Virus record (IMG/VR): IMGVR_UViG_3300027977_000008
Location: 64,001 to 128,000 of that record
DNA length: 64,000 nucleotides
DNA from: a virus
Strand: one strand, 5' to 3'
Both the position numbers and the translations under genes were made by a program. Shown here one piece after another: positions 18,866-21,830 of this stretch. The number at the start of each line of letters is the position of its first letter. Positions within the stretch are counted from its first letter, which is position 1. Below the pieces are notes generated by a model. That model was not told the DNA's origin, did no database searches, and saw only the letters and a list, made by a program, of their open reading frames with translations.

Positions 18866-19204
18866 ATGAACCCAAGTTCGGCTAAAGCTAAAGGCAGAAG
18901 ATTGCAACAATGGGTTCGTGATCAATTGATTGAGCACCTTGAAGTACATCCTGAAGATATTGAAAGTCGTAGTATGGGTGCTGGTGGAGAAGATCTTATC
19001 ATGGCTCGTGCTGCCAGATCTAAGTTTCCTCATAGTATAGAATGTAAAAATGTCGAGAAGCTAAATATCTGGGATGCTTACTCTCAAGCATGTGCAAATT
19101 GTGGCGAGTATGAGCCCGTTTTGTTTATAAAAAAGAATAACAAAAACCCATTAGTGGTTGTGGATGCAGAGTATTACATAAACTTATTTGGAGATAAAAA
19201 ATGA
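18866..19204 (+). CDS. Holliday-junction-resolvase-like PD-(D/E)XK nuclease
   Basis: SAKAKGRRLQQWV...SMGAGGEDL...SIECKN. Confidence 0.7.
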   Translation: MNPSSAKAKGRRLQQWVRDQLIEHLEVHPEDIESRSMGAGGEDLIMARAARSKFPHSIECKNVEKLNIWDAYSQACANCGEYEPVLFIKKNNKNPLVVVDAEYYINLFGDKK

Positions 19205-19896
19205 AAATTGATTTACATAACTTCTTTAAGCATTACGATGAAAAAAATCCTAAGCATGTTGCTGGTGTAGAGCAACTGGAAAAGGATCTAACAGATTCTC
19301 TATTGATTGATGACACCTCAAATTGGGTTAGGATTTATAGAACTAAACCAAGCAAACCAGTAAATCCATCTATTCTTGATGTGCCTTACTATCCACAGAC
19401 AGATAACTATACAAATGCAGAACGCACTTGTAATTCCTCTGCCTGTGCGATGTGTCTTGAGTATTTCAAACCCGGAACTCTTAAAGGAGCACAAGGAGAT
19501 GATGCCTATATTAGAAAAGTATTTGCCATCGGTGATACAACTGACCATTCTGTGCAGACAAAAGTTCTCGCAAGTTATGGAATTCAGTCAAGTTTTAGTT
19601 ATAATCTTTCTTTTGCTGATCTTGATAAAAGTCTTAGTGCTGGCAAACCTGTTGTTATTGGCATCCTACATCGTGGTTCTTTGTCTTATCCTACGGGCGG
19701 CCACATGGTTGTAGTGATTGGTAAGACACAGAGTGGTGACTATGTTGTAAATGATCCTTATGGGTCACTCAATGATGGTTATACGGGTGATGTTTATAAT
19801 GGCAAAGGTGCTATCTATAAGAAATCAGATCTATCTGCTCGCTGGTGTCCTAATGGTAATGACGGATGGGGCAGAATCTTTGATGTAAAAAAGTAG
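19201..19896 (+). CDS. Peptidase C39-like endolysin (0-frame product)
   Basis: PYYPQ...RTCNSSACAM (catalytic Cys); GGHMVVVIG (His); VNDPYG (Asp). Confidence 0.85.
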   Translation: MKIDLHNFFKHYDEKNPKHVAGVEQLEKDLTDSLLIDDTSNWVRIYRTKPSKPVNPSILDVPYYPQTDNYTNAERTCNSSACAMCLEYFKPGTLKGAQGDDAYIRKVFAIGDTTDHSVQTKVLASYGIQSSFSYNLSFADLDKSLSAGKPVVIGILHRGSLSYPTGGHMVVVIGKTQSGDYVVNDPYGSLNDGYTGDVYNGKGAIYKKSDLSARWCPNGNDGWGRIFDVKK

Positions 19897-20715
19897 AAAA
19901 CTCTACTCCTTCTGGAAGCAAGTATGATGTACCTGCAAAAGGAGTAGATCTTATTAAAGAGTTTGAAGGTTGTCATTTGCAGGCATATCCAGATCCTCTG
20001 TCTGGACATCTTCCGATTACTATTGGTTGGGGAAGCACTAGAGATTTGAATGGAAAACCATTTAAACTGGGTCAAAAGATATCACAAAAAGTTGCTGATG
20101 ATCTTTTGATAAATCAAATTAAAAATGAGTTTCTTCCTACACTTTCAAAAATACCTTATTGGAGTGAGATGACAGATGGAAAACGTGGTGCTCTTCTTAG
20201 TTTTGCTTACAATCTTGGAGCTGGTTTTTATGGATCTGGAAATTTTAGTTCAATCACTGCGAGATTAAAAAATAAAGAATGGGATAAAGTTCCTGATGCT
20301 CTTTATCTTTATCGTAATCCTGGTTCAAATGCAGAAGCAGGTCTGGCACGTAGAAGAAAGGCAGAGGGAAAACTCTGGAATTCTTAAAGGAGCACAAGGA
20401 GATGATGCCTATATTAGAAAAGTATTTGCCATCGGTGATACAACTGACCATTCGGTTCAAACTAATGTGTTGAATTCATATGGGGTTAAATCACACTTTA
20501 GTTACAATCTTTCTTTTGCTGATCTTGATCGTGAAATAGCAAATCAAAGACCAGTAGTGATTGGCATTCTACATCGTGGTTCTTTATCTAATCCTACGGG
20601 CGGCCACATGGTTGTAGTGATTGGTAAGACACAGAGTGGTGACTATGTTGTAAATGATCCTTATGGGTCACTCAATGATGGTTATACGGGTGATGTTTAT
20701 AATGGCAAAGGTGCT
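19479..20715 (+). repeat. Direct repeat pair (offset 903 nt) flanking the lysozyme domain
   Basis: 19479-19550 = 20382-20453 (72 nt identical); 19688-19812 = 20591-20715 (125 nt identical); diverged between the blocks. Confidence 0.9.
19887..20387 (+). CDS. GH24 lysozyme domain in the -1 frame, probably reached by frameshift from the C39 ORF
   Basis: -1 frame reads KKVENSTPSGSKYDVPAKGVDLIKEFEGCHLQAYPDP...TIGWG...ALLSFAYNLG...GLARRRKAE; no ATG/GTG/TTG upstream of the catalytic Glu. Confidence 0.8.
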   Translation, partial: KKVENSTPSGSKYDVPAKGVDLIKEFEGCHLQAYPDPLSGHLPITIGWGSTRDLNGKPFKLGQKISQKVADDLLINQIKNEFLPTLSKIPYWSEMTDGKRGALLSFAYNLGAGFYGSGNFSSITARLKNKEWDKVPDALYLYRNPGSNAEAGLARRRKAEGKLWNS

Positions 20716-20796
20716 GTATATAAGAAGTCTGACTTAACTTATAGATGGTTAGAGAATGGTAAGGATAAGACTGGTTGGGGAAGAATTTTTAAATAA
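20378..20796 (+). pseudogene. 5'-truncated second copy of the C39 peptidase (lacks catalytic Cys, different C-terminus)
   Basis: Same reading frame, 903 nt downstream of copy 1; starts at GILKGAQGDDAY; ends RWLENGKDKTGWGRIFK. Confidence 0.75.
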
Positions 20797-21046: not shown

Positions 21047-21170
21047 GAAACATCGCCTTACAGCGGTTACATCATGAGATTTTGATGTGAAAATTAGAGC
21101 CCAGGAGATTGCCCTTTGAAAAAAGGGAAGTGTGCTTTCTCTATTGGGATGTAGAATTCTATTAAACTTA

Positions 21171-21830
21171 ATGCTACTATCAACAATTGCTACCCTTTCA
21201 GTCTTAACTGCGTTTCAGTCACCACTCTTAATACCAGTGAGTGCTCCACCAGTTCCTGAGAAAGAAAGTTTAGAACTCACAGTTCAAGACTTCTCAAATC
21301 AGAAAGACACCAAATCTGAAAAACTAAACATTACAGAAACGAAGGTCGAAAATAAAGAAAAGATTTGGAAATGTAAAGGGTGTAATCAAACAGAAACTTA
21401 TGCTTTGAGTTACTTACAAAAACAAGGAATCAAAGATAAGAATGCTCTAGCAACAATCATGGGCAATATCAAACAGGAATCAGATTTTGTTCCTAATATC
21501 TGTGAGGGTGGGTCTAGAGTTTCCTACCAAGGATGTGGAAGCGGTGGTTACGGATTAATTCAGTGGACCGATTCTGCAAGATATAATGGTTTAGGAAGAC
21601 ATGCTGCCCGTATGGGTGCCAGTGCTTCCACACTTGACACTCAACTCAACTATATGTTGTATGAGGGTGACTGGAAAATGATTGAACCAAGAATGAAAAC
21701 TCCTGGTAAATCTATTGACCAGTACATGTATTATGCTAGTAAGTGGATTCGTTGGGGACATCATGGAGCAAGAACTGACTTTGCATATAACTATGCAAAG
21801 AAAATGGTTCTTACTGAAGTAGATGCCTAA
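21171..21830 (+). CDS. Secreted phage tail-lysozyme-family (Phage_lysozyme2-like) hydrolase
   Basis: Hydrophobic signal; ALATIMGNIKQESDF.P..CEGG...GYGLIQWT..R; start moved to ATG 21171. Confidence 0.7.
   Translation: MLLSTIATLSVLTAFQSPLLIPVSAPPVPEKESLELTVQDFSNQKDTKSEKLNITETKVENKEKIWKCKGCNQTETYALSYLQKQGIKDKNALATIMGNIKQESDFVPNICEGGSRVSYQGCGSGGYGLIQWTDSARYNGLGRHAARMGASASTLDTQLNYMLYEGDWKMIEPRMKTPGKSIDQYMYYASKWIRWGHHGARTDFAYNYAKKMVLTEVDA

Follow-up and report, generated by a model that had tools for sequence, protein, structure and literature searches.

The Peptidase-Lysozyme Locus

Here, we analyze a predicted cell-wall hydrolase locus of an uncultured T4-like cyanophage in a 64,000-nucleotide (nt) stretch of viral DNA, positions 64,001 to 128,000 of the IMG/VR virus record IMGVR_UViG_3300027977_000008 (hereafter, the window); the record as a whole is a metagenome-assembled sequence of 171,943 bases that is 82% complete. 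At this locus, an open reading frame (ORF) that encodes a cysteine peptidase is followed in the -1 frame by a lysozyme that has no start codon of its own, and the junction between them has the features expected of a programmed -1 ribosomal frameshift. An initial annotation, made from the DNA letters, had proposed such a frameshift, and the heptamer, the TAG, the 10-bp stem with its spacer and the start-less lysozyme frame were all found again at the positions it gave, on the evidence of the sequence, the ORF list, and Pfam (table 1). The nearest isolate is the Synechococcus phage S-PM2, with ~74% DNA identity; its two records both match the window over the same length, 1281 nt.

Table 1. Features of the peptidase-lysozyme junction, numbered from the first letter of the window
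Feature	Position (strand)	Description	Basis
0-frame ORF	19201..19896 (+)	231 residues, short product	ORF list, Pfam, PHROG, fold matches
TGA in -1 frame	19881..19883 (+)	-1 frame opens 78 nt before the FEG codons
Slippery heptamer A_AAA_AAG	19887..19893 (+)	In phase with the peptidase frame	Invariant at 20/20 junctions
0-frame stop TAG	19894..19896 (+)	Ends the short product; directly 3' of the heptamer
Stem-loop	19902..19948 (+)	Likely 3' frameshift stimulator	Fold, equivalents in relatives
-1 continuation	19893..20387 (+)	Ser/Thr/Pro/Gly linker, then complete GH24 lysozyme	Translation, Pfam, PHROG, fold

The 0-frame product combines a small helical N-terminal domain (residues ~1-50), which has no Pfam match, with a C39-like cysteine peptidase of the papain fold. 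Peptidase_C39_2 (PF13529) aligns over its full profile (1-143) to residues 59-187, with an E-value of 2.4e-15 and a score of 57.8 bits (cut-off 24). The ORF carries a Cys-rich NSSACAMC and a GGHM motif, and the fold of the peptidase domain is matched by the C39-like and papain-like peptidases 3erv, 7n87, and 2bu3. The -1 frame stays open between 19884 and 20387, with its TAA stop at 20385-20387, and Phage_lysozyme (PF00959) recognizes it with an E-value of 3.8e-21 (76.1 bits against a cut-off of 22.3). Its translation contains the lysozyme motifs EFEG, YPDP, and TIGWG, and Foldseek assigns the domain to the GH24 muramidase fold (9kbq, template modeling score 0.86, and the P22 lysozyme 2anv). 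Both ORFs of the window fit the 405-position family phrog_3617 in collinear order, the peptidase at positions 1-235 and the lysozyme at 245-405. Since PHROG relatives carry the label endolysin, that role can be proposed for the locus at the level of annotation.

The catalytic Glu codon of the lysozyme lies at 19965-19967, and the first ATG, GTG, or TTG of its frame, a TTG at 19977, is located 3' of it. Joining the peptidase to the -1 frame gives a long product of 395 residues. The median pairwise ratio of nonsynonymous to synonymous substitution (dN/dS) of the -1 ORF is 0.15, a value by which this ORF is under purifying selection. A sigma-70-type promoter was looked for between the two ORFs and not found, and the compared junctions have no conserved start codon there.

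The peptidase ORF ends with GAT GTA AAA AAG TAG. Because the -1 frame is closed upstream by a TGA and the 0 frame downstream by its stop, a productive shift is confined to 13 nt, 19884-19896, which is essentially the heptamer. The stem that follows is a perfect 10-bp helix (19902-19911 paired with 19939-19948) with additional inner pairs, and its 8-nt spacer can be compared with the norms that we used for this class: a structure ~5-9 nt downstream and, as an optional element known from dnaX, a Shine-Dalgarno (SD)-like stimulator ~10-14 nt upstream. The initial annotation had also pointed to an SD-like, G-rich tract upstream, which we place (GGATGGGG) at 19864-19871, 15 nt before the heptamer. 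This tract codes for an invariant Gly-Trp-Gly and is a poor match to GGAGG and the anti-SD, and on both grounds a role for it as a stimulator is not supported. One group of relatives with another slip site, described below as group 3, has nothing comparable upstream.

Relatives in some lineages encode both domains in one frame, and the AlphaFold model of such a natural fusion (mean predicted local distance difference test score 80) consists of the small helical N-domain, the papain-like domain that resembles C39-like peptidases, a disordered linker at residues 232-242 and the GH24 fold (template modeling score 0.86 to 9kbq), whose first helix spans residues 246-256.

The Junction in Related Phages

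The -1 ORF served as the query in a scan of IMG/VR that gave 80 loci, 28 of which have the peptidase followed by the lysozyme; once the window was added, these represented 22 distinct junctions. Setting aside S-SRM01 and the contigs with a seventh A (both treated below) left 20 distinct frameshift-type junctions, including that of S-PM2. At all 20, the lysozyme is encoded in the -1 frame and the heptamer is exactly A_AAA_AAG, the Lys pair being always written AAA AAG, a spelling that only 1 of 15 Lys-Lys pairs at other positions of these genes uses. Before this pair stands GTA, GCA, or GAA (Val, Ala, or Glu), so that the encoded residue changes and the third base, A in 20/20, does not; the background share of codons ending in A is 38%. 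Codons neighboring the heptamer region vary freely at synonymous sites. A stop codon, TAG or TAA, directly follows the heptamer at 19 of the 20 junctions. S-PM2 has the same layout as the window: its peptidase p156 ends with GCA AAA AAG TAA, and then come a hairpin and the lysozyme in the -1 frame. The three closest relatives of the window (L006, L011, and L016) likewise have six A in the run.

Each of the 20 junctions also has a downstream hairpin, which starts 0-8 nt after the heptamer, with a minimum free energy (MFE) of -9.4 to -32.4 kcal/mol and a z-score of -2.6 to -11.8. The stems belong to four families of unrelated sequence, and they fall in differing portions of the linker and lysozyme helix 1. 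The family of the window pairs TCTACTCC with GGAGTAGA and a second pairs GCCAACTAA with TTAGTTGGC; the third comprises L027 and L081, between which there are compensatory changes, and the fourth is the L069 type. Because the stems lose their register when the families are aligned together, each sequence was folded separately. No Rfam family matches the element. Natural controls are provided by lineages whose lysozyme starts at an ATG of its own that overlaps the stop codon of the peptidase, and in these the hairpin is absent: the folds reach -2.1 in S-SRM01 and -4.5 to -7.2 in L224, L226, and L228, with z-scores of +1.0 to -1.2, as against a median MFE of -16.3 for the frameshift-type junctions over the same 55 nt. 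The comparison of homologous loci that the initial annotation had called for thus returned the heptamer and a hairpin throughout and the adjacent stop with a single exception, and the comparative signal exceeds chance by a wide margin.

Other Predicted Slip Sites and Natural Fusions

The same arrangement recurs with other slip sites. In three S-CAM7 isolates and the contigs L215 and L216, the peptidase ends with GTT TTT TTT CCA CAG TAG, which contains an in-phase T_TTT_TTT; a hairpin of 8 bp or more (-16.7 kcal/mol) begins 5 nt further on, and the lysozyme is again in the -1 frame. In group 3 (seven contigs, four distinct sequences), a short ORF, homologous to the first ~50 residues of the peptidase and then carrying a Cys-x2-Cys motif, ends with CTG GGA AAG and a stop, that is, with G_GGA_AAG; the hairpin lies 5-6 nt after the heptamer, and the lysozyme once more occupies the -1 frame. 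Between L033 and L035, both members of this group, two base pairs have changed in a compensatory way (GGGCAGTA / TACTGCCC versus GGACAGCA / TGCTGTCC). Three different canonical heptamers, each with its own predicted hairpin, are therefore positioned exactly at the change of frame.

Other relatives encode the long product directly. In the ACG-2014f phages (dozens of isolate genomes), peptidase and lysozyme form one ORF of 405 residues, and its domain boundary still has an in-phase A_AAA_AAG; the -1 frame is closed by a stop one codon after it, and a hairpin lies 5 nt further 3'. Here, a -1 slip would yield the peptidase alone, the reverse of the polarity in the window. In L007-L010, four contigs that share the same junction, the run is one A longer than in the window, which creates an in-frame fusion that reads DVKK and then VENSTPSGSKYD, the junction predicted for the frameshift. 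The initial annotation had named an additional A, and hence an in-frame fusion, as an observation that would count against the frameshift; such an A does occur, but as an exception, the isolates and the closest relatives having six. Whether the longer run is a true allele or a miscalled homopolymer, it shows the form of the long product.

Separately from the loci with a peptidase, the freshwater group 2 (L003, L004, L022-L085; e.g., L003:2540-3211) has a lysozyme gene that opens with an in-frame homologue of the peptidase N-domain (~50 residues). An in-phase A_AAA_AAG stands at the end of this domain, within Arg-Gly-Lys-Lys, in 33 of 35 distinct sequences; a -1 stop follows exactly one codon after the heptamer in 28 of 32, and the dicodon contexts are of nine different kinds. 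The four sequences of group 3, in which the shift lies further downstream, have the same Lys-Lys in nonslippery codons. The pattern in group 2 resembles the premature-stop frameshift of dnaX, and a slip there would release the small domain by itself.

The ~50-residue helical N-domain (motif IDLHNFF..YD..NP.H; window 19201-19350, L003:2540-2700, L233-L262) heads the peptidase and, in other lineages, the lysozyme, and the lysozyme is covalently linked to it in nearly every architecture. S-CREM1 (L005:1459-2640) has the reverse order, lysozyme-linker-N-domain-C39 peptidase, in one in-frame protein of 393 residues that matches phrog_10051.

A Probable Programmed Frameshift and Its Alternatives

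In the window, a cell-wall peptidase gene most probably ends in a cassette for programmed -1 ribosomal frameshifting that belongs to the dnaX / IS3 type. Under this interpretation, ribosomes would as a rule decode GTA AAA AAG and terminate at the adjacent TAG, releasing the N-domain and C39 peptidase of 231 residues. Some ribosomes would pause at the stem-loop 8 nt downstream, and in these the two tRNA-Lys(UUU) could re-pair one base back, on AAA AAA; translation in the -1 frame would then run through the disordered linker into the GH24 lysozyme to produce a 395-residue protein with both peptidase and muramidase domains. The sequence features, their conservation and the identity of the domains are observed, whereas the slip, its efficiency, and the role of both products as phage lysis enzymes are inferred, as is the fixed ratio of the two forms put forward in the initial annotation. 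The tRNA complement was examined in a single proxy host genome, Synechococcus RCC307, in which 41 tRNA matches include one tRNA-Lys (UUU) and no tRNA-Lys (CUU); no tRNA-Lys was found in the 64-kb phage window. In Escherichia coli, it is a sole tRNA-Lys(UUU) that makes A_AAA_AAG prone to shifting (PMC5009743).

Several observations weigh against this interpretation. Folded alone, the window hairpin has an MFE of -17 kcal/mol and a z-score of -2.57, and 2 of 200 dinucleotide shuffles fold equally well; by itself it is moderately unusual and no more than suggestive. The covariation anticipated by the initial annotation was found in other lineages (L027/L081 and L033/L035), but not in the window's own family, since the core stem never varies there and the differences are limited to G-U-compatible changes and varying outer extensions. 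The 20 related junctions share ancestry and are not phylogenetically independent samples, the window comes from an incomplete metagenome assembly, and the tRNA check concerns one proxy rather than the actual host. Finally, L217 is an in-frame fusion without a slippery site, and other relatives have separate, ATG-started genes; as some relatives do without the device, the two-form output is a lineage trait and not an obligatory one.

The same fusion could be made without any ribosomal slip if RNA polymerase added one A within the A6 run, so that part of the mRNAs would encode it in frame. The shift site is indeed a homopolymer run, an A7 allele exists at the DNA level, and S-CAM7 has a run of eight T. 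Six A are nonetheless short for efficient slippage by a bacterial RNA polymerase, the G_GGA_AAG of group 3 is not a homopolymer, and the A run is invariably closed by a G and keeps its phase relative to the codons. Nor would a polymerase require a hairpin at 0-8 nt, whereas the hairpin is kept universally and is lost only where an ATG exists; the single tRNA-Lys of the proxy host also favors the ribosomal route. Although Thermus dnaX uses transcriptional slippage (PMC5009743), for the window we consider it very improbable.

Little more probability attaches to a separate translation of the lysozyme. It could begin at a noncanonical codon, the ATT at 19953 that AAGGAG precedes, or depend on termination-reinitiation, in which the hairpin would serve as a coupling lock over its SD-like arm. 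The 3' stem arm in the window and in S-PM2 is AAGGAG, 8 nt before an ATT, and a free-standing lysozyme is viable in S-SRM01 and L224-L228. But the SD-like arm is absent in three of the four hairpin families, and the codon in question is ATT, ATC, ATA, or GTC among relatives and falls inside lysozyme helix 1 (spanning 246-256 in the natural fusion), on the N-terminal side of the catalytic Glu and four residues from it. The ATT start, which the initial annotation had allowed might account for all of the lysozyme, was rejected for its lack of conservation and its place within the helix. In half of the junctions (10/20), no ATG, GTG, or TTG precedes the Glu, and the starts in the others are at nonconserved positions; moreover, separate translation leaves the exact conservation of the heptamer, in three forms, unexplained. 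We give an equally slim chance to the absence of any recoding, in which case the frame change would be an indel (a mutation, or an assembly or sequencing error), the lysozyme being silent or decaying, or the true sequence would be the in-frame A7 allele. The contig is a metagenome assembly, A7 is found in four contigs, and a truncated second copy of the peptidase at the locus (described below) indicates a recent rearrangement. However, the same -1 layout is present in both records of S-PM2, in three S-CAM7 isolates and at ~20 distinct uncultured junctions, and the nearest relatives share the six A. The lysozyme is intact, its dN/dS being ~0.15, and decay would not produce and retain hairpins of unrelated sequence at a fixed distance.

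Beyond the proposed frameshift in the window, a broader and more tentative proposal, which we hold to be possible rather than probable, is that the slip site and its hairpin form a reversible recoding module that stands before the lysozyme throughout the cyanomyovirus lysin family. It would occur with three heptamers and in both polarities, including the dnaX-like premature-stop version in freshwater N-domain-lysozyme genes, and would set the ratio of a short form, consisting of the N-domain and in some cases the peptidase, to a long form that bears the lysozyme. Sharing the N-domain, the two forms might cooperate, e.g., in a complex or in the timing of lysis.

Neighboring Genes and Annotations

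The second peptidase copy (window 20377-20796) begins at the lysozyme stop. It is 5'-truncated (residues ~92-228), lacks the catalytic Cys, and lies in the peptidase frame, 903 nt from the first copy, to which its identity is mosaic, from 30/30 down to 11/30 per 30-nt block. It ends with GWGRIFK and a stop, as in the L224/L226 lineage, and has no slippery site. The copy could be either a recombination remnant or an assembly chimera; it was rejected as a part of the cassette, being absent from all relatives. Further downstream (21132-21830), an ORF of 232 residues with a hydrophobic N-terminus contains a Phage tail lysozyme domain (PF18013, E 4.4e-18) and is a candidate second cell-wall hydrolase.

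Some isolate annotations describe only part of the lysozyme. The S-PM2 "putative lysin" p157 (L001:2564-2782) is annotated as 72 residues, which are the last 72 residues of the lysozyme, and the S-CAM7 "lysin" (L087:1511-1783, L089:1165-1383) as 72-90; these calls start at internal codons and leave out the catalytic N-terminal half. In S-CRM01 (L088:1124-2433), the reading frame of the lysozyme switches around CTA AAA GAA AAA GAT GG, close to the C-terminal third of the protein, and goes on into a YkuD-like domain (L,D-transpeptidase fold) that is annotated as a separate hypothetical protein. No canonical heptamer is present at this point, which could be a homopolymer error of an old assembly or another case of recoding.

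Relation to Known Systems

The textbook cases of frameshifting in phages are the tail chaperones and capsid variants, alongside dnaX and the IS elements. Our literature search found no report of a frameshift in a cyanophage lysin, an endolysin, or any other peptidoglycan hydrolase, with one lactococcal lead (Shearman 1994) left unchecked: the PRFect paper (PMC10885494) lists "lysins" among the genes with known frameshifts and cites that study of a lactococcal phage lysin. Neither lysozyme nor endolysin is mentioned in the available portion of the large 2016 recoding review (PMC5009743). The locus is likely to extend a known class, the -1 frameshift cassettes, to genes of a new kind. If so, the T4-like cyanophages, whose lysis machinery is poorly known, would have a bifunctional lysin and a peptidase-only form encoded by one locus, and the S-PM2 and S-CAM7 lysins would have to be corrected as truncated calls of a full lysozyme. 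The family would also offer a natural series for the evolution of recoding, ranging over three heptamers and both polarities as well as in-frame fusions and separate genes.

The proteins of the ACG-2014f type in phrog_3617 have the domain order and the linker position of the window, but they are encoded in one frame, whereas the window requires a -1 shift to produce the equivalent protein. Mycobacteriophage Ms6 LysA also derives two related cell-wall hydrolases from one lysis locus; there, the second arises from an internal in-frame start (PMC3111421), whereas the window forms would share their N-terminus and differ by a change of frame. The position of the shift, at the end of an upstream ORF that it joins to a start-less one, is like that in the IS3 OrfA/OrfAB genes (IS911, IS150) and in lambda G/GT, where the fusion carries an additional activity; A_AAA_AAG is common in IS3 elements (PMC5009743 and PMC4066793), and the G_GGA_AAG of group 3 is a known slippery motif as well (PMC4066793). 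The proteins and the biology differ from those of IS3 and lambda. In lambda G/GT, shifting is infrequent, and no strong hairpin is known to be needed for it.

The closest parallel in mechanism is the tau/gamma system of E. coli dnaX, which has the same A_AAA_AAG, a stem-loop a few nucleotides downstream, and a short and a long protein with a common N-terminus, and which depends on a sole tRNA-Lys(UUU) (PMC5009743), a condition that the proxy host RCC307 shares. The window has no convincing upstream SD stimulator such as that of dnaX, and its gene encodes phage peptidoglycan hydrolases and not a replication subunit. The outcome is also reversed: the shift leads to the short product in E. coli dnaX and would lead to the long one in the window, a polarity that matches the reversed dnaX candidates mentioned in the same review (PMC5009743). 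Within this lysin family both polarities appear to be represented, that of the window on the one hand and that of the ACG-2014f phages and group 2 on the other.

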